NCBI GenBank assembly: GCA_964016885.1
Contig: OZ024745.1
Coordinates: 27,094,001 to 27,158,000 of the forward strand
DNA length: 64,000 bases
Direction: 5' to 3'
Source: Eledone cirrhosa
Taxonomy: Eukaryota
The number at the start of each line of letters is the position of its first letter. The first letter of the stretch is position 1. The position numbers and the translations under genes were made by a program. The notes beneath the pieces were generated by a model that worked only from the letters and a program-made list of their open reading frames with translations, was not told where the DNA came from and did not search any database. Positions 10,677-63,409 of the stretch are shown piece by piece.

Positions 10677-10963
10677 TAAAATAACAGATTAAAGTTTAAG
10701 CAAAGAATCGCTGCTTTCACCCTTAACGGGATCTTCTGAAACTAACAAAGTCAATCTGTAAACGCAAAAGTGGATATTTCAAAAAACGCTGCAACCGGAG
10801 GAAGACAGGAAGACGATACTTTGGTTCGTGGAAACGTTCCCTGGCAAAGAACCTAGAAAAAACGAATATAATACGTCATTAATAGGAGCGGTGAAAAACA
10901 ATTACGCGCAAAGACAGAACCACGTTTATGGTATAAAAGAAGTCGTAGACTAATATTCTCTTA

Positions 10964-11213
10964 GATCAGATGACTATATATCATAATTGATCTGGTCCAG
11001 TTGAAAATAATTAACATATTTAAAAGACAGAGTGGCTCATCGGAACTTCAAAGGAATATAAATTAAATTAATGGGATAATGTTACATAATATAATGTTCC
11101 ATATATTGGTTTAATTTATATTCCTTTGAAGTTCCGATGAGCCACTCTGTCTTTTAAATATGTTAATTATTTTGACCTGAACCAGATCAATTATGATATA
11201 TAGACATCTGATC
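10964..11213. repeat. Inverted repeat, ~105-bp arms (10964-11068 / 11110-11213)
   Basis: ..aagacagagtggctcatcggaacttcaaaggaatataaattaaa mirrors tttaatttatattcctttgaagttccgatgagccactctgtctt.. Confidence 0.9.
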
Positions 11214-11250
11214 CAGAAATATTATATGGAGTAGCGAAACAATTGTAAAC
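11131..11250 (+). ncRNA. Hammerhead ribozyme-like motif (type I, variant core CCGAUGA, long helix II insert)
   Basis: gtt-CCGATGA-gccactc[~80 nt]gagtagc-GAAAC-aatt-GTA-aac. Helix I gtt/aac; helix II 6 of 7 pairs; palindromic helix III ACAAUUGU. Confidence 0.6.
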
Positions 11251-11480: not shown

Positions 11481-11711
11481 TGACTAGTGTGTGTTTATGT
11501 GCTTGTTGTTATTGTGCTTGTGTATGTATTTATTTATCTTATTTTATTTTATTTTATTTACTTATTTATACTTCTCTTAGGTCAGTGTTGTTTGTTTCAA
11601 CACCCAAACAAACAACACTGACCTAAGAGAAGTATAAATAAGTAAATAAAATAAAATAAGATAAATAAATACATGCACAATAACAACAAGCACATAAACA
11701 CACACTAGTCA
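11481..11711. repeat. Near-perfect palindrome, ~105-115 bp arms
   Basis: tgactagtgtgtgtttatgtgc..ttaggtcagtgttgtttgttt [caacaccc] aaacaaacaacactgacctaa..gcacataaacacacactagtca. Confidence 0.9.
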
Positions 11712-11936: not shown

Positions 11937-12208
11937 AAATTATGTAAACTATATATATGTGTTTGTGTCTATATTGTATCTGTATTATTTTTGACCGTCG
12001 GTCAGTCAATGGCAACATTGAGGACCGAGTAAGTTAGATCGCAGATATAAAAGACAGCGAGAAGCGAAAACCAACCAAACAGTGAGTGTGTTCTGTTATG
12101 AATTCTGGCAATATTACACAAATATGACCCTCCCCAAGTATAACAATATTTGTTTCGACACACGATTTCATATAAAAAACCTCGCTAAACTAATATATAT
12201 ATATATAT

Positions 12209-12248
<40 letters not shown>

Positions 12249-12316
12249 GTGGAATACTGGAAGGTAATATCCGTAGTGGTAGAGCACTGTGGTTACACAA
12301 CAGTTAGTTCACCATA

Positions 12317-12356
12317 CCGAGAACAATTGTTTCACCTTAGCGAATCTTCAGCTCGG
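12317..12356 (-). ncRNA. Minimal type-I hammerhead ribozyme motif (left arm)
   Basis: Reverse complement: ccgag-CTGAAGA-ttcgctaaggt-GAAAC-aatt-GTT-ctcgg; helix II is weaker than in the right-arm copy. Confidence 0.65.
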
Positions 12357-12639
12357 GATGTGTATGGTTATAGGAACTGGAAGGAGAACCGTACGAACGC
12401 GCATGCACAGAAACTCGGTCACTTCACACAGGCAATAATAGACTGCGTGCGCGGGGTGTAAGGGGAATAACTGCGAAAGTCCGGAAAATTTTTGGTTCAA
12501 CCAAAAAACTTTCCGGACTTTCTGAGTTATCTCCATTACATCCGAGCACGCAGTCTACTATTGCCTGTGTGAAGTGACCGAATTTCTGCGCATGCGCGTT
12601 CGTACAGTTGTCTTTCCTGTTCCTATAACCATATACATC

Positions 12640-12679
12640 CCGAGCTGAAGATCCGCGAAGGTGAAACAATTGTTCTCGG
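12640..12679 (+). ncRNA. Minimal type-I hammerhead ribozyme motif (right arm)
   Basis: ccgag-CTGAAGA-t-cc-gcgaa-gg-t-GAAAC-aatt-GTT-ctcgg. 5-bp helix I, palindromic helix III, predicted cleavage after GUU at 12674. Confidence 0.75.
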
Positions 12680-12714
12680 TATGGTGAACTAACTGTTGTG
12701 TAACCAATTCTATA

Positions 12715-12756
<42 letters not shown>

Positions 12757-12846
12757 GTAATAATAATAAAATTGAAGACTAAAATCCAAAGATCCCGTTA
12801 AGGGTGAAAGCAGCGATTCTTTGCTTAAACTTTAATCTGTTATTTA

Positions 12847-12906
<60 letters not shown>

Positions 12907-14203: not shown

Positions 14204-16387
14204 TCAATCCTGGTAGTATTTATAATATGAAAATGTAGATTTTAAGCGATGGTTACAGTATAACGATCGCTCTATTCTGTTATTTAATAAAATGTTTTTG
14301 GATTTCATAATACAAAATAATTCTACATTACATAATTTACAAAATTCCTGTCCATTGGAATATGGGGGGGGGGGGGCAGCCGCTATTATATCCCATTTTA
14401 GGTGAAATTGTTGGTTATTTTCACGCAGCTGCCAAGCCTTGTCTGCGAGTGTTGTTACATAACGCTGGTTTTCATGTTTTATCGAATAACGATGTCTATA
14501 AAGGCGTGATTTGAAGGAGGTGGCTGTAGATCCCACATAGTACCACTTCTGTCTATCCGATTCGATAGTACATTTGTATACGATGTTACGCTCAAGACAC
14601 TGATTGTTCAACGGACACATTCCTGGTTGGACACAGTTGCAATTATAATTTTGCGTTGTTGTATTGCCATGGATGGGTTGATGAGGTTGCTTATGTAGGA
14701 CAGGATGTTGTTTGTTGTTTTGTGATGTTATAGCTAATGTTTTACGTGTATTGTTATGTGTTGGAAGGCGTTTATACAACCGTTTTGCGTTAAGCTTTTT
14801 TATATGTTGTTCAATATTAGGGGCGGTTGAATATGAAAGTCGAATAGTGTTAGGGTTTAAGATTTTATTATATTTATGTGATGTTGGAAAGTGTTTTCTA
14901 ACTAATCGAAAGAATTTTGAGGGTAGATTGGTTTTAATAGATTTGTTATAGACCGGGTTGTACCAGATATACTCCCTACATCGCCTTCTGTTTGGTGGTG
15001 TGCGACTATTATTGTGTCTATTGCGGTAGTGTATGTATGGTGGTGATTCTGTGCTATTTCTACTCCTATGTGATTTATTTTGGGTGTTTTGGTGATCTTT
15101 GACTATATACTCTATATTATCTAGGTGACCGGCTTTCCTAAGTGCATCATCATAATACTCGGCATGTTCTTTGAAGGTTTGTTGGTTGGACGATAGGCGG
15201 GAGATTCTAAGAGAAACGTTTCTAGGGATGGATTTAATTATAGAGAGTGGATGGTTAGAACTCGTATCTACATATTTAAGGTTCTCATTTAGTTTATGGA
15301 ACGGTTTAATCGTATCTGTATTGAGATTGAAAGTAACATCAAGGAAATTGACCTCTTTGAGGTTATATTCAAATGTAATATTTAATCCTAGTTCCTTAAA
15401 AAGTTTTCTGATATTTTTACGCATCCTTTCTAAATTCTGGTTATTCATATGCTTAACTAATAGGAGCGCATCGTCACGGTAAATTCCACCGTGGAGATCC
15501 TTGAATTTTCCTTGTAATCTGTGGGTGATATAAATTCCCACAAGATCTGTTACTTCCGCCGAATCATTAGAACCCATAGTGATATCAAGGATTAAATATT
15601 ACATTTGAATATAACCTCAAAGAGGTCAATTTCCTTGATGTTACTTTCAATCTCAATACAGATACGATTAAACCGTTCCATAAACTAAATGAGAACCTTA
15701 AATATGTAGATACGAGTTCTAACCATCCACTCTCTATAATTAAATCCATCCCTAGAAACGTTTCTCTTAGAATCTCCCGCCTATCGTCCAACCAACAAAC
15801 CTTCAAAGAACATGCCGAGTATTATGATGATGCACTTAGGAAAGCCGGTCACCTAGATAATATAGAGTATATAGTCAAAGATCACCAACCCAGTAGCTAT
15901 CATCGAATTTAACTATAGTTTTTCTCGCTTCCATAATAATTTTAATTTCAGCATCCGTAAGGTCGGAATTATCCTTAGCGAACGAAAGAGCTTCGTGTAG
16001 AGTATCAGGTGAAATTGAGGAATAATATTCATCAATATCAAACTGAATAAATTTTGATTTTTTCTTATCAGTAATGTTATTAAACCATCTTATTGCTTCA
16101 TGGGTGTTACCCCATAGTTTAATCTCTACTTTAACCTTAACTTGGGGGATAATTCTGTCTAGTATATATTTGCTAATTTTACCTATATCAGATTTAGAGG
16201 GGCATATAAGTCTAATATTAGGGTTAGTATCGAAGTTTACCTTGTGGTCCTTCAGGTTGAAGGATGGTATAGCTGGTGTTAAGGGTTGCGTTCTATCGTC
16301 AATACAAAGTTTTTTAACAATATCACATGCCGAGTTGTTGATGTTTTTAAGTGTGGCTTCATTAGTTTTCCTGTATTTTTTATGCAA
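14204..16387 (-). pseudogene. PLE reverse transcriptase / GIY-YIG ORF split by a 301-bp inverted self-insertion
   Basis: Two ORF pieces (15875-16387 and 14204-15577). 15588-15888 is the reverse complement of 15089-15389. Confidence 0.88.
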
Positions 16388-16469
16388 TTCCTTACGGATG
16401 AAGTTATTGTAATATAAAAGTTATTGTTATATAACTTATATATTGTAATATATAAGTTATTGTTATATA

Positions 16470-19778
<3,309 letters not shown>

Positions 19779-19830
19779 ACTCAGGAAAGAAGGTTGACAT
19801 GGTTTGCTATACAAAAAAGGTTTTTAATCT

Positions 19831-19999: not shown

Positions 20000-22098
20000 C
20001 CAGCGTGAACTACATAAAAATATAAAAAAACAAATGAATCTACACTCACCAGCATTAACATGGAGGGCCTCAAGATAGTTAATAAACTCGGAATTCCAGA
20101 TAGAACCGAACCGCTAACCCAGTGCAACCCAACATTTAACCTGAAGGATCACAAAAATAACTTTGAAACTAATCCCACCATTAGATTAATATGCACATCC
20201 AAGTCAGACATAGGTAAAATTAGCAAGAACATTCTAGATAGGGTAATCGCACAAATAAAGGGTAAACTAGAAATCAATTTATGGGGCAACTCTAACGAGG
20301 CAATTAAATGGTTCAATAAAATACAAAATAGGGAGACGTGTAACTTCATACAATTTGATATAGACGACTACTATGCATCCATATCCCCAGCTACCCTAGA
20401 TAATATTTGCCCAAAATAACTCTGATCTTACCCATGATGAAATTGAAATAATAATTGTTTCTACTTTAGGCACAAGGCCAGCAATTACCCAGTGCATTAC
20501 TGGTACTTTATTTTATCGACCCCGTAAGGATGAAAGGCAAAGTCAACCTCGGCGGGATTTGAACTCAGATAGCGGCTAGAAGGACTATCATAAAATTTGA
20601 AAATAGCTACTGGGTAAGAAAGGATAGAATAAATAGCTTCGATATAACAATGGGATCAAATGATTCTGCGCAAATCATAGATATCGTGGGGCTATTCATA
20701 GCACACAACCTACATAAGGAATTCAGTAACCTCCAAGGAGGAATTTATAGGGACGACACGTTACTTATAGCTAGGAACCTAAACAACCAGAGCATGGAAA
20801 GACTAAGAAAAAATATTAGAATATTCTTCAAAAAACTAGGCCTAAGTATTACCTACGAACTAAACCATAAGAAGGTAAATTTTCTAGATGTGACTCTAAA
20901 TCTAAATACTGGATTAATAGAACCTTTCCACAAAAATAATGAAAATCTTGCCTACATTAGTTACAACTCAAATCACCCCAAATCCATAATTAGATCCATA
21001 GCACGTAGTATATCCCTCCGAATATCCCGCTTATCCTCAAACCTAGAAATCTTTAACGAGCATGCTGACTATTATAATGCAGCATTACGTAGGGCCGGTC
21101 ATAAAGATAAACTGCAGTATATAGTGAATAAGGACAACGTAAACAATCCTAGTAATTACTACTCCAACCGCTCACATAATAATAGAAATAACTTGACTAG
21201 ACATAGGGTTGGACACATAACACCTGGAGTAAACGGCCAAAACACTAATAACGTAAACCCAAGAAACAATAGAAGAAACAGACAAAGAAAATACCTATGG
21301 TTCAACCCAATATTCAACTCCTCTATAAAAACTAGACTGCCCTCTACATTCTTTAAACTAATAGATAAACACTTCCCTATCTCGCATAGATATCACAAAA
21401 TACTCAATAGATCTACTATAAAACTCTCATACTCAACAGCAGCTAACATAGAATCACACATACGCAAGATCAACCACAGAAATATCTCTAGTAAATCAAC
21501 TGCACCTATACATAACGTAGCACCTAATTATAAGCACAAACACATCACAACATCACAACCACAAGCGCATACAAACGCGCAGCAGCAAAACCCCATTGGG
21601 CATATATCACAACCCACTTATAACAGAGTACTAAACAGGAATGTAAAAGCTGCACAAAATAGCGCCTCAAACTGTAACTGTCACCTACCAGATAGGTGCC
21701 CATTGGCGAACAGATGTCTCGATTTGAGCCTAGTGTACATGTGCACGGTCATCTCGGGTAACTCCACCTGGAATTACATAGGATCCACCGCGGGTTCTTT
21801 TAAAAAAATATGGTATGTGCACAGACACTCAATGAAAAACCGTGCACTTATGGGTTCCACAACCCTCGCCAAAAAAATATGGGAACTGAAGGACAGCAGC
21901 ACTAATTACAGTATCAACTGGTCGAAGTTGTCGGCTGCTAAAACCTATAGTACAGGGATGTCCCACTGCGGGCTATGTGATCTTGAGCTTTTGTATATCC
22001 TCAAAAATGTAAAAAGGCTACTTAACAATAAGTTAGAAAGATCTATCTTCTGCAGACATAGAATTGCCACTAAATTCATAAGATTCAAACCTCCGTGA
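20000..22098 (+). pseudogene. PLE RT / GIY-YIG ORF disrupted by a small deletion (~20403) and an antisense SINE (20454-20570)
   Basis: The frame resumes as AARRTIIKFENSYWV..FDITMGS after the SINE, collinear with element 1. Confidence 0.85.
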
Positions 22099-24479: not shown

Positions 24480-26995
24480 AACTTTGAATAACTTTGAAAT
24501 GTTTTGGCCAGTATTGGCCCAGGCCATGTCTAACTTAATAGCACCACCTGGCGAAGTCTTTCAATTCAGGATTTGGGCACCATGGCCCATTCGAGAAGAG
24601 AATTACTGTTTGCGGAGACATATCCGGGTGTGGGTGGTTTGTCCGGGATTACTTGGAGGAATTTGTCCAAAGACTTCTTGAATTTTGAGTGGTCAGTTTC
24701 TGTTTTGATGTGTCCTGGTGTGATGTTGAAGAGAGCAGGGCCGATTGAGGTGAAATAATTGTGCCGTATTGTTGTTATGAGTTGTGATTTAGATTTTTGA
24801 ATGGGACGGATAGCACGGGGCCCAAGCCTTGGGTGTATCATTTGGGCAGTGATGATGGAACATTTTCCACATCATGCAGATAATATAACGCTCACGGCGA
24901 CGTTGGAGTGAGTAAAGTTTCAGGTTTTCCAATCGACCCCAGTAGTCAAGGTCTGACATGCCATCTATCTTTTTCGTGATTGCCCTTTAAGGAGCTTCAA
25001 GTTTCATGATACTTTGTTTCGTGTGGGGAGACCACAGTGGACAACAGTATTCAAGGTGTGGTCGGGCGAAAGTAGAGAAGAGAAGGATAATGGTGCGGGA
25101 ATCTCTCGACTGGAAGGTTCTGAGGATCCAGGAACACATTCTGCCGGCTATGTCAACCTTGCTGCTTATATGCGTGGTCCAGCTTATGTTGCTGTCCACG
25201 GTTACTCCCAAGTCTCTGATGTTGTTAGATGCCACGAGAGTTTCCCCGGAGGGAAGGGAGTACGGGAGTTTCAGAGCATCCTCTTTTCCAAAGTGGATCA
25301 GTTCGAATTTGTCCTCGTTCAGTAACATGTTGTTCTTTTCTGCCCATTGGGTAACAGCCAGTAGGTCTGACTGAAGGCTTATCCGGTCATCCACGCCATT
25401 GATGACCTTTTGGAGCTTGGAATCATCAGCGAAAATTTTAATGTTGCTGTGTTTGATGATGTCAGTGATGTCATTAATATAGATGATGAAGAGAAGTGGG
25501 CCCAACACAGTGCCTTGTGGGACTCCACTACTGACTTTGGCTGGGCTTGATTTGACTCCCTCAACTACAACATGTTGGGTTCTGTTTGACAGGAAGCTCT
25601 TGATCCACTGCAGCAGCTTTCCAGTGACACCAATATTGGACAGCTTTCTCAGTAGAATGTTATGATCAACCCTGTCAAAGGCCTTGCTGAAATCAAGGTA
25701 GATAACATCAGTGTTGGAACCCTCTCCCAAGGCTCTCAAAATGTCATCAAAGTGATGCAGTAGTTGCGTCAGGCAATCCCTTCCATTACGGAATCCATGC
25801 TGGTTGGAGTTCAGCATATTGTTACTCTCAAGGAAGTGGGTCATTCGCGATCTCACCACTCGCTCAAATACCTTAATGATATGAGAGGTGAGTGAGATTG
25901 GACGGTAATTCACGGCAAGGGATTTGTTTCCCTTTTTGAAAACTGGGACAACAGACTGGGATAGAAGGTTTTCTGGCACATATCCAGCATCCAGTGAGTT
26001 CCGCCACAGATTGGCAAGAGGAGAAGCAAGTTGGTGTTGACACGCCTTCAGGACACAAGCAGGGAACCTATCGGGACCTACTGCTGAATTATGCTTGATT
26101 TCCTTTATTGCCGCCAAGACATCAGGGGCGCCAAACGTTATGTCCGATAAGGTGTAATGGGGAGTAACATCGCCGATACAGCCCAGATCGGCCATATCAG
26201 GATTGCTGAAAACAGAGCAGTATTGTTTCTGCAGTATCTCACCCATGGTTTTAGCATTGTCTTGAAGAGTGCCATTTTCATCAATTAGAGGGCCAACAGT
26301 AGAGCCAGTGATTTTGTGTTTTTTTGCAAATGAAAAGAACACTTTGGGATTGAGTTTGATCTTCTCAATGGCCCAGGCCTCTTCAGCTCTTCTCTGATTG
26401 TTGATGAGGGACATTATGTTGTTTTGGAGGTTATGTTTTTTAATCTCTAGTGATGAAATGGCAGTCAAGTTGATGTGTTGCTGCTGACAGTATTTCAGCT
26501 TGTTGATTTTTTTGTTCGTTCTCTTAATTTTTCTGATGAGCGTTTTTCTATTTCTAGGGATTCTGCTCTTAGATTTGTTTATAGTTCTTAATGGGGTGTG
26601 TTTAGCACATATGTTTGTAACAGTGTCCACAAATGTCTGCCAGGACTTTTTGATGTTAGTGGGTGTATGAGTGTGCGTGAAGGACCAGTCGACATGTGCA
26701 AGATCATGACTGATCGCTTCCCAGTTTGCATTGTGGAAATCCATAGCGTCAAACGGATGGACAGGAGAGATGACATTGGGTTTGTATATTGGACGGTGGA
26801 ATCTCAGATCACAGAGAACCATGTCATGATCAGAGAGTAGAGTTTTCTCCACTGCAATATTGTGGATATTGTCAGTGTGATTGCTGAAAATTAAGTCTAG
26901 GACGTTTTTGTGGCACCTCGTTGGTTCGAGCACTAGTTGGGATAGGAAGAAATCATCCATGAAGTCAAGAAGTGATTCCACAGCTTCCCTGTCAG
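24480..26995 (-). mobile_element. CR1/L2-group LINE copy A, 5'-truncated (endonuclease C-terminus + RT), premature stop at 24987
   Basis: [61 protein letters not shown]; 3' tail (tttcaaagtta)2. Confidence 0.92.
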
Positions 26996-27265
26996 ATACA
27001 TATATATATACATATATATATACATATATATATATATATACACATATATATATACATATATATATACATATATACATATATATATATACACATATATATA
27101 TGCATATATATATATATACATATATATATATACATATATATATATACATATATATATACATATATATATATATATACACATATATATATACATATATATA
27201 TACATATATATACATATATACATATATATATATACACATATATATATGCATATATATATATATAC

Positions 27266-27296
<31 letters not shown>

Positions 27297-27297
27297 C

Positions 27298-27330
<33 letters not shown>

Positions 27331-27368
27331 CATATATGTATATATATATATATATGTATATATATATG

Positions 27369-27639
<271 letters not shown>

Positions 27640-27673
27640 GTATATATATATATATGTATATATATATGTATAT

Positions 27674-29483
27674 AACTTTGAAATGTTTTGGCCAGTATTG
27701 ACCCAGGCCATGTCTAACTTAATAGCACCACCTGGCGAAGTCTTTCAATTCAGGATTTGGGCACCATGGCCCCTTCGAGAAGGGAATTACTGTTTGCGGG
27801 ATTACTTGGAGGAATTTGTCCAAAGACTTCTTTAATTTTGTGTGGTCAGTTTCTGTTTTGACGTATCCTGGTGTGATGTTGACGAGAGCAGGGCCAATTG
27901 AGGTTAAATAATTGTGCCGTATTGTTGTTATGAGTTGCGATTTAGATTTTTGTTTGGGACGGATAGCACGGGGCCCAAGCCTTGGGTGTATTTTGAAGGT
28001 GATGCCAACATCATTTGGGCAGTGATGATGAAACTTTTTCCACATCATGCAGATAATATAACGCTCACAGCGACGTTGGAGTGAGTAAAGTTTCAGCTTT
28101 TCTAGTCGACCCCAGTAGTCAAGGTCTGACATGCCATCTATCTTTTTCGTGATTGCCCTTTGGGGAGCTTCAAGTTTCATGATACTTTGTTTCGTGTGGG
28201 GAGACCACAGTGGACAACAGTATTCAAGTTGTGGTCGGGCAAAAGTGGAGAAGAGAAGGATAATGGTGTGGGAATCTCTCGACTGGAAGGTTATGAGGAT
28301 CCAGGAACACATTCTGCGGGCCATGTCAACTTTGCTGCTTATATGCGTGGCCCAGCTTATGTTGCTGTTCACAGTTACTCCCAAGTCTCTGATGTTGTTA
28401 GATGCCACAAGAGTTTCCCCGGAGGGAAGGCAGCACGGAAGTTTCAGAACATCCTCTTTTCCAAAGTGGATCAGTTCAAATTTGTCTTCGTTCAGTAACA
28501 TGTTGTTCTTTTCCGCCCATTGGGTAACAGCCAGTAGGTCTGACTGAAGGCTTATCCGGTCATCCACGCCATTGATGACCTTTTGGAGCTTGGAATCATC
28601 AGCGAAAATTTTAATGTTGCTGTGTTTGATGATGTCAGTGATGTCATTAATATAGATGATGAAGAGAAGTGGGCCCAACACAGTGCCTTGTGGGACTCCA
28701 CTACTGACTTTGGCTGGGCTTGATTTGACTCCCTCAACTACAACATGTTGGGTTCTGTTTGACAGGAAGCTCTTGATCCACTGCAGCAGCTTTCCAGTGA
28801 CACCAATATTGGACAGCTTTCTCAGTAGAATGTTATGATCAACCCTGTCAAAGGCCTTGCTGAAATCAAGGTAGATAACATCAGTGTTGGAACCCTCTCC
28901 CAAGGCTCTCAAAATGTCATCAAAGTGATGCAGTAGCTGCGTCAGGCAATCCCTTCCATTACGGAATCCATGCTGGTTGGAGTTCAGCATATTGTTACTC
29001 TCAAGGAAGTGAGTCATTCGCGATCTCACCACTCTCTCAAATACCTTAATGATATGAGAGGTGAGTGAGATTGGACGGTAATTCACAGCAAGGGATTTGT
29101 TTCCTTTTTTGAAAACTGGGACAACAGACTGGGATAGAAGGTTTTCTGGCACATATCCAGCATCCAGTGAGTTCCGCCACAGATTGGCAAGAGGAGAAGC
29201 AAGTTGGTGTTGACACGCCTTCAGGACACAAGCAGGGAACCTATCGGGACCTACTGCTGAATTATGCTTGATTTCCTTTATTGCCGCTAAGACATCAGGG
29301 GCGCTAAACATTATGTCCGATAAGGTGTAATGGGGAGTAACATCGCCGATACAGCCCAGATCAGCCATATCAGGATTGCTGAAAACAGAGCAGTATTGTT
29401 TCTGCAGTATCTCACCCATGGTTTTAGCATTGTCTTGAAGAGTGCCATTTTCATCAATTAGAGGGCCAAGAGTAGAGCCAGTG

Positions 29484-29486
<3 letters not shown>
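27674..29486 (-). mobile_element. CR1/L2-group LINE copy B, 5'-truncated
   Basis: ORF 27719-29419 is near-identical to copy A and has the same 3' end. Confidence 0.92.
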
Positions 29487-43709: not shown

Positions 43710-46075
43710 TATTTCTTTATTAGCCACAGGGGCACAAAAGAAGGGGACAAATACAAAGGGGGAAGTTTACATACAATAAAAACGTGTAAAATGTTATCAC
43801 AGATGGAATTTAAAAGTTAGTCGATTTTCCCCAATAGAGGGAGACAGTTTATATGGGTAACACAGACCCCCGAAAAAAATGTGCAACCCTCATCTCCAGG
43901 AGTACGAAGAGCTTGTACTCCTTTCCTCTCCTCCTCCTTTTCCTCAACCTACAGGCTGATATAGAGAGAAGGCCCATTCACTCGGGCCATTCTCGCCACT
44001 TTCACCCACCTTTCATAAAACTTGCTGGGGTACAGCACCTCTCTCTCCATCCTGATTCTTCTTCCAAAGTGGTATTTGAAAAAAAGAATCAGTTGTTGGC
44101 CGGAGAGAAAGGTGTCTGACCTCAGCCCTTTCAACCTTGTCCACCATACAACCTCTTTCGCCATAGCTATCACACAAAGGAAAACCGCCTCTCCTTCGTT
44201 TTTGAAGGAGGGTGGCGGTTTGATCATGACAATGGACTCGGTGGTCAACTGGATTGGTCCCACCCGCGACAATAGTCGTTCCACATAGCCCCACAGGTCA
44301 GTGACGCCCGGGCAGTGTATGAATGCGTGCGCGACGGTTTCTTCGTCTCGCACGCACCTCGGACAGATCTTTTTTGCAGGGTCCCTGCCCGGGCGCCCAT
44401 GTCTGTAGAGCTTGTCTCGAACTGGTAGAGCTCCTCGGTAGCACTGCCAGGCCAGGGACTTTTGGAAGTTGTCCATCGGTCCCGGGCGGAAGGTCCTACC
44501 GAACAGACTGGCCAGTTCATCTTCCTCCACGCCTAGAGTTTCACCGAGCGCGTCGTCGCACTTGCTGCGGACCAACCCTCTATAGAATGACGAAGTGGAG
44601 TCTCCACTGATCGCCGGGTCCGCCTGCCAGAGGGCTGTGAGCGCCTGAGCACATTCGATGTGCCAGTCGCCCATTTTCCTCGGTCTCTGCTTGACCCAGG
44701 ACTGCAGCTCGGTCAGCGAGACGAGTCGTGGGAAGGCTCGCCTCACGAACGGGGCCCACACCGGTTGTCCGGTGAGGAATACGTAGAGATGCCGCAGCCT
44801 GAGCGCGTGTTTGCGCATCGTCAACCACGGCATCCCCAGCCCTCCGTTAGAAGGGTGTTGGCAGCAGATGGATCTTCTTACCAAAGGAGCCCGCCTCTTC
44901 CAAAGGAATCGGAAGAGGGCGCGCTCCATTTTGGCGAGCGTTTTGGCTGGACAAGGCACGACGGTCAAGCGGTAGTAGATGGCGGACGCTATAAAAGTGT
45001 TCGCCACCTCCGCTCGACCTTTCAAGGATAGTTTGCACTCGGCCCACTTCTGGGTGAGTGCAAACACCTTGGCCGTCACTTCGTTCCAGTTCTTCTCCAC
45101 CTGGAGGTCCGGACCAAACCAGACCCCGAGCAGCTTTACCGGTCCTTCCGTCCAGCGTCCGACGACGCCATCGGAAGGCATCGGTCTGCCTCTCCACGAT
45201 CCGAGTTGCAAACCGATGGACTTGTCCCGGTTCAGCTTCGCTCCTGTGAGACTTTCGTATTCCTTTAGTAAGGTGCCGACTTCCTCGATTTGCGAGGCGC
45301 TCGACACCATTACTGTCACGTCGTCGGCGTAGGCCGACGCCGCTTTCCGCAGTCCCGGTTCCAGAGGGATGCCCTGCAATAGCTCCAGCTTCCGCAGTAG
45401 TGGCTCGAGAGTCAGTACGTACAGAAGGGAGGAGAGAGGGCATCCCTGTCGAATGGATCGCGTAATATGGAACGGCTCCGAGAGGTAACCGTTCACCTTG
45501 ACCCTTGAGCAGATGTTGCTGTTGTGCATTGCAGCAATCCAGCCCCTGAACACGGGTCCGAAGCCTGCCGCCTCGAGCACCGCATCCAGGTAACGATGGT
45601 CAACCCTATCGAAAGCCTTAGACTGATCCAAGTTGATCAGGGCCCCACCGAAGCCGGGTTTACACCCTACCCTCTCTATGATGTATCGCATGAGGTGGAG
45701 GTTGTCGTGTATGGACCTGGTCGGGATCGCGCATGTCTGCGCTTCTCCCACCAGGTTCTCGACGACAAGCGCCAGCCTCTTTGCCAACACCTTGGCCAAA
45801 ATCTGTAACTCTGTGTTTAGCAGAGTTATGGGCCGGAAGTTGCCTATGTCATCCCCCTTATTCTCGTCCTTCCTGATTAGTGTGACCACGCCCCCGGTTA
45901 CAGAATTGGGAATTCTCCCGTTCTGTTGCCAGTTGCAGTAGACCGCTTCCAGGAGACCGGAGAATAAGTCCGGCATTGCTACGTAAAATTCGTAGGGTAG
46001 ACCGTCGAGACCTGGAGATTTGCGTTTGCCGCATTGGCTCAGCGCGTCCCCTATCTCAGTGGCTGAAATCGGCTG
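43710..46075 (-). mobile_element. Tx1/L1-clade LINE copy 2, 5'-truncated, open RT ORF 43949-45976
   Basis: NFRPITLLN..ILAKVLAKRL, LDQSKAFDRV, SIRQGCPLS, AYADDV, KLLGVWF, GGLG, C-terminal CPRC..ET..H..C. Confidence 0.93.
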
Positions 46076-46082
46076 AATTCGG

Positions 46083-46119
<37 letters not shown>

Positions 46120-46124
<5 letters not shown>

Positions 46125-49066
46125 TGTTTCTAATTATTGCCACGAGGGCGCAAAAGAAAGGGACAAATACAAAGGGGGGAGTTTACACAAAAGAACGAGT
46201 AAAAAAAACAAATAACAAATATAAAATTAACAATAAAGTCCTCAATAGGGAGGAGGCTTTTTGGGGGTCGCGCACACCTCCCAAAAAGTGTGCAACCCTT
46301 CTCCTCAGGAGCACAGAGAGAGGGTGCTCCCTTGTTCTGCCATCTTTTTCACCTACAGGCTGATATAGAGAGAAGGCCCATTCACACGGGCCATTCTCGC
46401 CACTTTCAGCCACCTTTCATAAAACTGGCTGGGGTGGAGCACCTCTCTCTACATCCTGATCCTTCTTCCGAAATCATATCGGAAGAAAAGGACCAGTTGT
46501 TGGCCAGAGAGAAAGGTGTCTGACCTCAGTCCTTTCAAACGCGTCCACCATACAATCTCTTTCACCATGGCTATTACGCACAAGAAACACCGCCTCTCCT
46601 TCATTTTTGAGGGGGGGGGGCTTGATCGTTATAATAGACTCGGTGGTCAACCGGTCCCACCCGTGACAGCAGTCGTTCGACATAGCCCCACAGATCGGCG
46701 ACGCCCGGGCAGTGTACCAATGCATGCGCGACGGTTACCTCGTCACACACGCATCTGGGACAGATCTTTTTCGAGGGGTCCCTACCCGGGCGCCCGTGTC
46801 TGTAGAGCTTTTCTAGAATGGGCAGAGCCCCTCGGTAGCACTGCCAGGCCAGGGACCTCTGGAAGTTGTCAATGGGTCCCGGGCTAAATGTCCTACCGAA
46901 CAGGCTGGCCAGTTCGTCTTCCTCCATGCCTAGGGTTTCTCCGAGGGCGTCGTCGCACCTTCTGCGTACCAGCCCTCTATAGAATGTCGAGGTGGAGTCT
47001 CCACTGATAGCCGGGTCCGCCTGCCAGAGAGCCGTGAGCGCCTGCGCACACTCGGTGTGCCAGGCGCCCAGTTTTCTCGGTCTTTGCTTGACCCATGATT
47101 GCAGCTCGATGAGTGAGACGAGTCTCAGAAAGGTTCGTCTCACAAACGGGGCCCACACCAGTTGACCGATGAGGAATACCTGGAGGTGCCGTAGCCTTAA
47201 TGCGTGTTTACGCATCAGCAGCCACGGCAACCCCAGCCCTCCTTTCAAAGGGTGTTGACAGCAGATGGATCTCCTCACCAAAGGGGCCCGCCTCTTCCAA
47301 AGGAATTGGAAGAGTGCGCGCTCCATTTTGGTGAGCGTTTCCCTTGGGCAAAGCACGACGGTCATGCGGTAGTAGATGACGGACGCTATATAAGTGTTCG
47401 CCACCTCCGCCCGACCTTTCCGGGATAGTTTGCACTCGGCCCACTTCTGGGTTAGTGCAAACACCCTGTTCGTTACCTCACCCCAGTTCTTCTCCACCTG
47501 GAGATCTGGTCCAAACCAGACCCCGAGCAACTTCACCAGGCCCTCCGTCCGGCGTCCGACGACGCAATCGGAGGGCATCGATTTGCCCCTCGACGTGCCG
47601 AGTTGCAGCCCGATCGACTTGTCCCGGTTCAGCTTAGCCCCTGTAAACCTTTCGTACTCCTCCAGTAAGGTGCCGATCGCCCCGATTTCTGAGGCGGTCG
47701 ACACCATTACTGTTACGTCATCGGCGTAGGCCGACACCGTTTTCCGCAATCCCGGTTCCAATGGGATGCGCTGCAACAACTCCAACTTCCGCAGCAGTGG
47801 CTCGAGGGCCAATACATACAGAAGAGAGGAGAGAGGGCATCCTTTTCGGATGGACCGCGTGATTTCGAACGGCTCCGTGAGGTAGCCGTTCACCTTGACT
47901 CTAGAGCAGATGCGGCTGCTGTGTATGGCAGTGATCCAGCCCCTGAAAACGGGTCCGAAACCTGCTGCCGCTAGCACTGCATCCAGGTAACCATGGTCGA
48001 CCCTATCGAACGCCTTAGATTGATTCAAGTTGATCAGGCCCCCACCAAAGCCGGGTTCGTTCTCAACCCTCTCTATAATGTATCGCATAAGGTGGACCTG
48101 GACGGGATAGCACATGTCTGCGCATCTCCCACCAGGTTGCCCACGACAAGCGCCAACCTCTTTGCTAACACCTTGGCCAAAATCTTTAACTCTGCATTTA
48201 GCAGAGTTATGGGCCTGAAATGACTTATTTCGTCCCCCTTGTTTTCGCCCTTCTAACGAAACTACGCCCTTGGTCACAGAACAGGGAATTCTCCCGTTCT
48301 GTTGCCAGTTGCAGTAGACCGCCTCGAGGGAACAAGTCCGGCATAGCTAGATATAATTCGTATGGAAGACCATCGAGACCCGGGGATTTGCGTTTGCCGC
48401 ATCGGCTCAACACGTCCCCTATCTCAGCAGCTGAAATGGGCCCCTCGCAAGTCTTCGCCTCCTCGTCCGAAAGACGCGGCAGGCCGTCGAGGTATGGACC
48501 GAAGTCCACATGGCCATCCCCCCCCCCCCGCGAACAATCGGGTAAAGTGCCTTTGCTCAAGGATCACCCGTCCATCCTGGTCTCGCAAAGACCGGATAGT
48601 GGATCTAATCCCTCTTTTGGCTTCTGTCACGCGGGCCCAGCTAACAGCTTTGGTCCCCTCGTTTCCTAGAGCACCTATTTTGCTTCGGACAACGCAGCCT
48701 TCGTGCTTCGCGTCAAAGAACTGGCCCAAGGCCGTTATCGACGCTAGCACTCTGGCTACGTCGCCGCTTCTAATTGCCTCTTCTACACTATCTACCAACT
48801 CCCTTTCCTTCCTATTTCTATCTGAGGCTAACTCCTTACTAAATCCTATTGAAACTACTCTAATCTCTCTTTTGAGAGATCGCCACCACCTGCTGTTGAC
48901 GATCGCTCCCGTCAACCACTCTTTAACTAAAGTACTAATCCGGTCCCTGTACACTTTACTTGCAGGTAAGGACAAGTTCAGTTTCCAGTAACCGGGTCCC
49001 TGTCTATGGGTTCTATCAAGGTTGAGTATGCAGGTCACTAATTTGTGATCCGAATAGCCAACCATG
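46120..49066 (-). mobile_element. Tx1/L1-clade LINE copy 3 (diverged, frameshifted; includes endonuclease C-terminus)
   Basis: SDHKLV..GPGYWKLN (48424-49065), KSPGLDGLPYE, RT 46601-48277; bounded by (gata)n. Confidence 0.9.
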
Positions 49067-51989: not shown

Positions 51990-52244
<255 letters not shown>

Positions 52245-52252
52245 CGATATAG

Positions 52253-52489
52253 GCTCGCCATGTAAGAAAACCGATGCTCTGTGCTTGGTGTGTGGTGATC
52301 GAGCATCTGGCAAACATTACGGTGTTCTTAGTTGTGATGGATGTCGCGGTTTCTTCAAAAGGAGCATTCGTCGAAATCTCGATTATGTTTGCAAAGAAAA
52401 TGGATCCTGTGTTGTCGATGTTGCTCGAAGGAACCAGTGCCAGGCGTGTCGATTCAAGAAATGCTTGGAAATGAAAATGAACAGAGATG
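52253..52489 (+). CDS. Nuclear receptor NR2E subfamily (PNR-like / NR2E6-like): DNA-binding-domain exon
   Basis: [69 protein letters not shown]. Acceptor ag at 52251-52252, donor gtgagt at 52490; 237 nt, phase 1-1. Confidence 0.95.
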
Positions 52490-52566
52490 GTGAGTGTGAG
52501 TATTTTAATTCTTCATTGTTTGATGACCATCTATAATATATCTAAGCTTACTTAGAATGAGTTAAT

Positions 52567-61018: not shown

Positions 61019-62068
61019 GTAAATTGATTCAGTGCTTAACTAGAGTTAACTTTGGATATATGGAATAAGTACAAATAATATACAGAAATCGTTTCTCTGG
61101 CAAACAAAACACAACTGTCGTTGTGTCCTAGAACCCAATATCAGTTTATATTTAGCGAACCTAAATCAGCGAATTGACAGAGTCGTTAGAACGACCAATA
61201 GAATATTTAGCGTTATTCCTTCCAACTCTCTGCGCTCTGAGCTTATATCCCGCCAAGGACAACTTTGCGTTTCGTCCTTTCAAGATCGATAAAAAAATAC
61301 TTTGTATAGAAGTCAATTCTCTCTCTCTCTCTCACTCTCTCTCTCTCTCTCTAAGAAGAAGAAGAAGAAATTGGCTGTATTCAGACCTGGAGAGAAGTGA
61401 GCTTAAAATGCCCAAGAAACGCCTACGACTCCACCAGGAGTTACGTGTCCATACATACAAATCAGAGCCATATAATAAGATTTCTTAAGATTCAAGATCA
61501 ACTCGAGAGATACTGAAATATTATGTAATAATACGATGTTAATTCTAAATATACAATTAGAAAGCAGTAAAATACTTTACAATCGTTTGAAATTCTTTGT
61601 TCTATACAGCTGAGAAAGAATTTATAAGTTTGGCCTTTAAGCTGGAATTGGGAGAGTCGTTAAAGTGTTGAATTAAATGCCTCGGTATTTGTTCTGGCTC
61701 ACTGTGCTCTGAGTTCAAATTCTGGTGAAGTCAATTTTAGCCTTTCACCCTTTCAGGGTCGATAAATAAACTACAAGCCTTGGGTTGCTGATTAGACAGA
61801 AATTGTTAAAATATCAAACGAGATGCTTTGAGATATCTGATTTAGTCATGTGCGTTATAAGTTGCCAGAAGTTGCAACCATCAGATAGTAACAGCAATGG
61901 AAAGACCCAAGAAAACACTCCTTGGCCTAATTGGACAATCGGTTCCTTTCTTTTCCATTTTTTTCTATGAAATTTCTCTTCTCAATAGAATGTATCTACA
62001 ACTGCTTTGGTATTAAATTGAAAAATGACGTTTTTCCATATTGTTTTGTTTTATTTCATTCTATTTAG

Positions 62069-62461
62069 AATCTTCTGGAGGCACTTCACAGGAGAATTCA
62101 GTTAGCACAACAACATCTATTCATCCACCGACAACTATAAGCGGCAACCAGCCTCAAACCTTTCCATACAAAATGATTCCAGCATCAGCTGTAAATATGA
62201 ATCCTTCATCATACCAACCACCGTTTAGTATGTTAACTAACCCTCTTACTGGAGGAGACCAACATTTTTATGTCAATAATTCCAGTGTAGAAAGCGTCTA
62301 CGAAACAGCAGCACGCCTCTTATTTATGTCGGTGAAATGGGCGCGAAACATTCCATCGTTTCTTCAGCAGCCATTCCGCGATCAAGCAATTCTTTTGGAA
62401 GAAAGCTGGAGTGAATTGTTTATTCTTAGTACATCACAATGGTCAATGCCAATCGACATAG
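62069..62461 (+). CDS. NR2E receptor exon: start of the ligand-binding domain
   Basis: ESVYETAARLLFMSVKWARNIPSFLQQPFRDQAILLEESWSELFIL; tttag|aa to ag|gtaagt; 393 nt, phase 1-1. Confidence 0.93.
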
Positions 62462-63409
62462 GTAAGTAAATATTCTTGAGATTGTTTTGTTCGGTCTTAT
62501 CTGTATCGATAACTTACAAATTCTAATAAAAATAAAAAGGAAATATTCATGACTGGCCACGATTTACGCACCTCTGACAGACCATAGATTTGCATTTCCG
62601 AAGTAGAGGCCTTACCAAGTGATTTGTGTAAGACCAACAATCGCCCATGCATGCAAGTCTTCCTTCTCCACGACACTGATATTGTCCAAGGAAAGGACAA
62701 GTGCTGATACAGATTAACACCTGTGTCGTTACAACTCATATTTTTATAGCTGAGTGGACAGGAACAACGTAAAATAAAGTATTTTTCTCAAGGACACGAC
62801 GTACCGCCCGGTCTCGGAATCCAACTCACGATCGGGAGCCCAGCGTCTTAATCAATAAGCCATGTACCTTCTCAGAGATAAAAACAGCCGTTATATGATA
62901 ACGTATGTTTAAGATATTTTTTAAAGGCGTGCCAGCTATGACCATCCTGACATTTTGTATATAAGAGACTACATTGTTTAAGCGTCCTTCTTTACTAGTG
63001 TCTTTACAAATTTTCTGTAATCTTAATTGCCTTTCTATTCGACTTACGTACAGTGTTTGTTTACATACGTCTGTCTGCCTGTCTGCTGACATCTGAAAGC
63101 TGTTGTCTAGTTATCTAGTTAAAAAGACGGTGGAAGAGTTGTCACGGCCCCTTAGAGCGTCTAGCCGGTATCTGGAAGATATGGGGGTTTCAATTCCTCC
63201 TAGCGACTGATGACAACATATTTTCCCGTCTTTTAAGGGTTTTCACCCTATTTTATAAGCTATTACATAGCATCTCTGCGCTTGAACACATCATCCTTTA
63301 AACTTATATATATAATATATATATATATGTATGTAAAAGGTAAACAGAAATAACAACACAATCGGTACAGGAATATATTAGGTTAATGCTTGAAATAGAA
63401 GGAAGAGGG

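Follow-up and report, generated by a model that had tools for sequence, protein, structure and literature searches.

Introduction

According to Craig et al. (2021, PMC8557442), Penelope-like elements (PLEs) of the Hydra clade are diagnosed by the protein motifs DKT and RWK, a CxCx5C linker, CxxC and CxH towards the end, and the lack of a CCHH motif. Dual hammerhead ribozymes (HHRs) about 100–700 bp apart on opposite strands were described in Schistosoma by Cervera and de la Pena (2014, PMC4209133), who also linked dispersed HHR motifs to truncated PLEs. Head-to-head repeats with palindromic junctions have likewise been reported (PMC3846280). The kind of structure treated here, opposite-strand HHR pairs at 100–700 bp and inverted truncated pLTRs with a one-sided tail, is therefore already in print. 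For PAc, a Poseidon element of Anolis (Frangieh et al. 2024, PMC11167929), it was found that both target strands are cut and extended, that two reverse transcriptase (RT) start sites define the tail and that HHR cleavage is dispensable. Retrozymes consist of units repeated in tandem on one strand, contain two or more HHRs and give rise to monomeric circles (PMC7229834; bioRxiv 10.64898/2026.07.22.740005). Our literature searches, which mostly covered sources outside subscription journals, found no described palindromic retrozyme.

Here we analyse a palindromic locus in a 64,000-nt stretch of the Eledone cirrhosa genome (GCA_964016885.1, contig OZ024745.1, positions 27,094,001 to 27,158,000), hereafter the window, numbered from its first letter. 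An earlier note, made from the letters of this stretch, had proposed the locus as a candidate palindromic retrozyme or, alternatively, as a fold-back product of PLE reverse transcription. We find that it very probably consists of head-to-head truncated 3′ ends of a Hydra-clade PLE in a TA repeat, likely placed there by a single event, with one of the two arms tailed.

Structure of the insertion

Self-BLAST of the 64-kb window returned an inverted repeat at 12290–12706 with 90.2% identity (E 1e-158). Global alignment of its two 207-nt arms gave 188 identical columns out of 208, with 18 substitutions and two compensating 1-nt indels, around the central nucleotide C12498. The 207-bp arms and one-nucleotide centre of the earlier note are thereby borne out. 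Its end points, 12291 and 12705, are not those of the element, as the insertion runs from 12244 to 12712 (Table 1). Alignment to another copy of the family (L036) revealed a 26-nt deletion in the left arm that took away 5 nt at the end of the body and 21 nt at the start of the tail. Because this deletion hid the tail, the true left boundary at 12244 had been missed.

Copies of this PLE family finish either at a short end or at an end 66 nt further on, the additional stretch forming the tail. Each end closes with CTA, after which (TA)n follows. Where copies stand in tandem, the next unit's leader begins with the tail; in L142, L147 and L162, it is the tail that leads into the 5′ leader of the following unit. 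At our locus, only the left arm has a tail, which is partly deleted; the right arm is tail-less. The TA and TAA microsatellites noted nearby are present as (TA)n and (TAA)n flanks. The palindrome had also been described as devoid of coding capacity. For the arms themselves this is right, save for one stop-to-stop antisense frame of 135 aa that bears no mark of a gene; they do, however, form the 3′ UTR of a retroelement that codes for protein. Each arm departs by 4–5% from the family majority sequence. With 90%, the identity between the arms is the lowest of seven long pairs (90–97%), consistent with an older copy.

Past the TA tracts, both flanks (11960–12195 and 12750–12855) are ends of other repeats, present in 15 and 25 fetched loci, respectively (self included), which indicates that TA-targeting elements pile up side by side.

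Table 1. Coordinates of the insertion and its parts in the window
Feature	Position	Strand	Remarks
Left flank	12194..12245		(TA)n target tract
Whole insertion	12244..12712		Very probably two 5′-truncated pLTR copies of a Hydra-clade PLE, head to head in (TA)n
Tail remnant of left arm	12244..12288	-	45 of 66 nt; from alignment to copy L036
Left (tailed) arm	12289..12497	-	3′ UTR/pLTR; 4–5% from family majority sequence
Type I HHR motif, left arm	12317..12356	-	Intact core; U.G in place of one C-G in helix II; cut predicted between 12322/12321
Inversion junction	12496..12498		2-nt (TT) arm overlap at 12496-12497; genome-unique
Right (tail-less) arm	12498..12712	+	Stops at the family's short 3′ end (12712)
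Type I HHR motif, right arm	12640..12679	+	Core 12645-12651; predicted cut after 12674
Right flank	12711..12769		(TA)n, then (TAA)n tract

Assignment of the arms to the Hydra clade

By sequence, both arms represent the 3′ end (pLTR) of a Hydra-clade PLE. Upstream of the arm sequence, other copies continue into a coding frame with RT and GIY-YIG. The protein motifs follow in the order DKT, YRDD, CxCx5C, AVIYE..SYVG without a Cys in between, CxxC and CxH. The linker reads CSCPKPEAC, CGLC and CPH stand near the end, and RWR replaces RWK. In L162, a 722-aa frame has YRDD at 407 and AVIYE/SYVG at 635/655, that is, an RT followed by a C-terminal GIY-YIG endonuclease, and the overall layout is pLTR, tail, leader, ORF, pLTR and tail. 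None of the 120 RT matches that were scored had an intact full-length frame, the longest open frame being that of 722 aa. The RT and endonuclease of this PLE went unrecognised in sequence searches of Pfam and PDB. The clade assignment thus rests on the motifs together with look-alikes in the ESM Atlas, which score 0.95–0.97 and include GIY-YIG clusters. A Neptune-clade PLE was considered and ruled out: the linker is CxCx5C and not CX2-5CxxC, and no Cys lies between the GIY and YIG halves (no CCHH).

Like the Hydra-clade PLEs with C-terminal endonuclease (EN+) described by Craig et al. (PMC8557442), this family is smaller than 3 kb, has DKT and CxCx5C, lacks CCHH, carries CxxC/CxH around the late EN motifs and an HHR at its 3′ end, and targets (TA)n. 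In line with this target, TA-rich flanks were present on both sides in 29 of 37 head-to-head pairs, as well as at our locus. An inverted 5′-truncated copy with a one-sided tail, as found here, is described as typical in the legend of their Fig. 2. Differences concern the RWR in place of RWK and the length of the tail, which measures 66 nt here versus 30–40 nt. Moreover, the HHR sequence differs from that of Hydra-1_Obim, the one row of the supplement of PMC8557442 that was compared, so the family may be unlisted there.

Hammerhead motifs in the arms

The two outward-facing HHRs of the earlier note were recovered at the same positions by a motif scan, in which they were the only matches in the 64 kb, one per strand. 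The motif was assigned by hand because Rfam detects none: no HHR reached the gathering score in the window, nor E ≤ 10 within 12200–12800. Rfam matches to miRNA families scored far below the gathering score and reflect the hairpin shape.

The motif is composed of CUGAnGA (CUGAAGA), GAAA and a GUU site. Its helix II has 2 bp and stands on a U.U base, and its helix III, likewise of 2 bp, is capped by a palindromic AATT loop. In the right arm, helix I can be extended by pairing 12629–12633 with 12680–12684. Core positions are at least 95% invariant across 133–160 family arms and stand in order with helices I–III, and the motif is therefore real at the family level. Inside the motif, the common variation of the family is found at N7, in loop 2, and in the internal loop and at the edge of helix I. 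At least two subfamilies, differing in N7, loop 2 and the helix I internal loop, occur among census loci L071–L150, and the second of them holds most of the very short palindromes in this set. The helix II base is U.U in 142/145 and 145/150 arms, and the type I feature G10.1-C11.1 is absent.

Folding prediction for an isolated arm yields a minimum-energy structure that is not the HHR fold, and self-cleavage would likely need a dimer or a protein. The dual minimal HHRs of PMC4209133 resemble those of our locus in their opposite strands, palindromic loop 3 and likely dependence on dimers. Whereas their helix II spans 7–8 bp with G10.1-C11.1, it is short here and has a U.U base. In this respect, the motif is reminiscent of axolotl HHR_Amex2, which also has U.U at the helix II base and a 2-bp helix III with a tetraloop, and whose cleavage is weak in the monomer but improves in the dimer (PMC7229834; bioRxiv 10.64898/2026.07.22.740005).

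Census of copies and centres

A 24-nt motif from the 3′ end had 4,676 exact matches in the genome, with 0 for the control, so the family comprises at least 4,676 3′ ends. The first 100 matches, ordered along C1, contained 18 outward-facing pairs spaced 38–2428 bp, one inward-facing pair and no same-strand pairs within 6 kb. The census sample consisted of 80 of the 81 regions from these position-ordered matches. Head-to-head pairs were found at 38 of the 80 loci, or 37 of 79 after dropping L097. Exactly one arm was tailed in 35 of the 37 pairs (p 1e-8). Extrapolation from C1 gives an estimate of roughly 1,800 head-to-head insertions genome-wide. No census locus carried two same-strand strict HHR matches.

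The earlier note had suggested testing whether many copies share the same centre and ends. In the census, the centres of the pairs vary, lying between about 25 nt and more than 1 kb from the 3′ end. The centre of the insertion at 12244–12712 had a single genome match, itself, as opposed to 838 for the uninverted sequence, in a search that returned exact rows only and that diverged same-centre copies could escape. Centres that differ between copies, and a form confined to one place, are outcomes that the earlier note itself had named as refuting its proposal. A further genome search produced 2,315 candidates. Among the 40 scored, the full 415 nt were matched only by this locus and by L002 (C7), the rest being matches to one arm, and the junction of L002 differs from that at 12496–12498. 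The sole identical-junction pair in the census, L096/L097 (G000:C1:35.17 Mb and 36.10 Mb), has common flanks (97% over 1356 columns, in inverted orientation); since these are shared, the pair is a segmental duplicate and not a repeated centre.

Proposed insertion mechanism

We consider it reasonably probable that a double-strand cut, double priming on uncleaved RNA and joining through a 2-nt overlap made this locus. The endonuclease of the element, acting as a dimeric enzyme, would cut both strands of a (TA)n tract. The RT would prime from both DNA ends on the same kind of uncleaved RNA, from one source, using two start sites on the RNA, the tail end and the short end. At 12244–12712, both cDNA copies would have stopped about 215 nt in and would then have been end-joined via the 2-nt overlap. 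Double priming on uncleaved RNA is favoured because the arms share a haplotype, because either arm can be the longer one and because many arms stop at helix I.

Within single insertions, the two arms have the same state at 274 of 303 polymorphic cells, compared with 0.58 ± 0.07 after shuffling, in a set of 48 loci with one arm per strand, some of which are not true pairs. At our locus, both arms carry a G that occurs in 0 of 78 other arms. They differ at 4 of 16 family-polymorphic cells, two of which match another haplotype, a weak hint at two templates or gene conversion. In the 36 census pairs, the longer arm is the tailed one in 16 and the tail-less one in nine; in L163, L034 and L040, the tail-less arm greatly exceeds the tailed one, by more than 1 kb in L163 and L034.

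Out of 125 arms, 41 stop between −90 and −69, on the 5′ strand of the extended helix I. The stop rate in this zone is 0.027 per nt versus 0.0012–0.0014 further upstream (about 20-fold), with endpoints good to approximately 10 nt and some of them wrong where the panel copy held its own inversion (L001). An exact stop hot spot at −71 was discarded as partly a reference artefact, the second subfamily differing at −79 to −72; analysis with a panel of 73 copies resulted in the broader zone of −90 to −69. No run-off peak was seen at the predicted HHR cut (−38/−37), with 6 of the 125 arms ending in −39 to −10 and 7 in −50 to −40, in a count that under-detects very short arms. The insertion at 12244–12712 is among the minority of loci whose arms passed the ribozyme.

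The single steps of the proposed mechanism find support in PAc, whose tail is set by two RT start sites, whose enzyme cuts and extends both strands of the target, and for which uncleaved RNA is the main template (PMC11167929). However, PAc belongs to another PLE clade, and the accessible sections of that paper hold no explanation of head-to-head junctions. As a more tentative generalisation, Hydra-type PLEs may prime both break ends at two fixed start sites of the same uncleaved RNA, with helix I of the HHR serving as an RT roadblock or joining signal and not as scissors. A helix I roadblock would explain both the stopping of about one third of the arms there and the estimated one to two thousand small HHR palindromes.

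A less likely route to the second arm is fold-back self-priming of one cDNA (or an antisense template), the tail difference being produced by later endonuclease trimming. Self-priming has been proposed in PMC3846280 and endonuclease resolution of the tail in PMC8557442, and the haplotypes common to both arms are in keeping with such an origin. Arm lengths also correlate, lying within 15 nt of each other in 24 of 36 pairs as against 12.4 expected, a count that takes in L097 and reference-biased ends; the correlation is owed partly to the shared stop zone and to reference bias at −71. Yet the nine pairs with a longer tail-less arm, and L163 and L034 with an excess above 1 kb, have a geometry that is impossible for a tail-first fold-back. 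In addition, a centre of 1 nt leaves too little room for a hairpin primer, and PMC11167929 maps the tail to two RT start sites with both strands cut and extended. The suggestion in the earlier note that PLE reverse transcription produced the palindrome is supported. Simple fold-back of one cDNA is doubtful, since the ends of the two arms correspond to different points of the RNA and the longer arm, by a wide margin, can be the tail-less one.

Hairpin potential and selection

A transcript across the locus would be expected to form a long hairpin hiding its single sense HHR; for either strand, the predicted fold is about −346 kcal/mol. Hiding of the HHR would be a by-product of the inverted geometry, expected of any such insertion. 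Arm mismatches that would give G.U pairs number 4 in the plus and 7 in the minus transcript (p 0.55), that is, without bias. Neither editing-type A/G mismatches between the arms on the plus strand nor, apart from one shared variant, compensatory changes between the arms were found. There is no sign of selection on the hairpin, and the insertion at 12244–12712 has likely been decaying without function since it occurred.

It is accordingly very improbable that the host has adopted the hairpin RNA as a source of siRNA or piRNA or as an editing substrate. Transcription of the locus would yield a 200-bp duplex, and nuclear-receptor exons are located about 40 kb downstream. Nevertheless, the arms show no pairing-preserving bias and no compensatory change beyond the one shared variant, and many similar stubs exist genome-wide.

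Still less credible is an independent palindromic unit, be it a retrozyme or a non-autonomous element, whose transcript would fold back, sequester its ribozyme, perhaps as the switch envisaged in the earlier note, and be re-inserted as a whole. Both ends needed for mobilisation in trans are present, either strand is predicted to fold strongly, and the HHR cores are intact in both arms, although by our estimate intact cores are expected around 30% of the time at such divergence. The locus also resembles metazoan non-LTR retrozymes in its type I HHR, non-coding nature and relation to PLEs (PMC7229834; bioRxiv 10.64898/2026.07.22.740005). Unlike those elements, it carries a single HHR on each strand, is not built of tandem units and is present in no further copies; it is not a retrozyme. 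Centres vary across the family, this one is found once in the genome, the junction of L002 is a different one, and the sole identical-junction pair is a segmental duplicate. We therefore do not retain this part of the earlier note.

An assembly or read chimera (fold-back artefact) is the least probable origin of all: no read or contig spanned the centre in four sequencing runs searched (three empty, the fourth, X1, with family relatives elsewhere) and several other palindromes lie in the window, but the arms differ by 10%, as the earlier note had already held against a fresh artefact, and end at two different family-typical points, and contigs of the independent run X1 hold two shorter head-to-head joints of the same PLE family.

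Taken alone, the locus is of little weight, being one decayed insertion among thousands. The family sample, on the other hand, bears on the origin of the inverted structures and tails of PLEs, a question named as open in PMC8557442. The one-tail rule, the shared haplotypes, the either-arm-longer pattern and the helix I stop zone furnish predictions for an in-vitro assay in the style of PMC11167929. Annotators of TA-rich animal genomes should be aware that HHR pairs on opposite strands usually represent PLE stubs.

Other repeats and genes in the window

Two further Hydra-like PLEs lie nearby. At 14204–16420, a second, different element with about 32% protein identity to this family contains an internal inversion. 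Its inverted arms (15089–15389 and 15588–15888) are 100% complementary, so this copy is either very young or assembly-homogenised. A third Hydra-like remnant (20018–22098, minus strand; about 30% identity) retains RT, thumb and endonuclease regions. Three more palindromes of 88% (10951–11224, 11481–11711 and 32039–32470) belong to other repeat families. They have relatives in other fetched loci, the scan found no HHR motif in them, and they probably are stubs of this kind as well.

Exons of a nuclear hormone receptor, which we take to resemble the NR2E group, are found on the plus strand at 52243–52500 and 62029–62466 (zf-C4, E 9e-31; ligand-binding domain, E 2e-08). The palindrome is situated about 40 kb upstream of the DNA-binding exon of this receptor. 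Fragments of LINE-type retrotransposon frames occur at 27719–29485, 37708–39500 and 43949–48346, and the segments 16404–19800 and 24987–29485 look like local tandem duplications.
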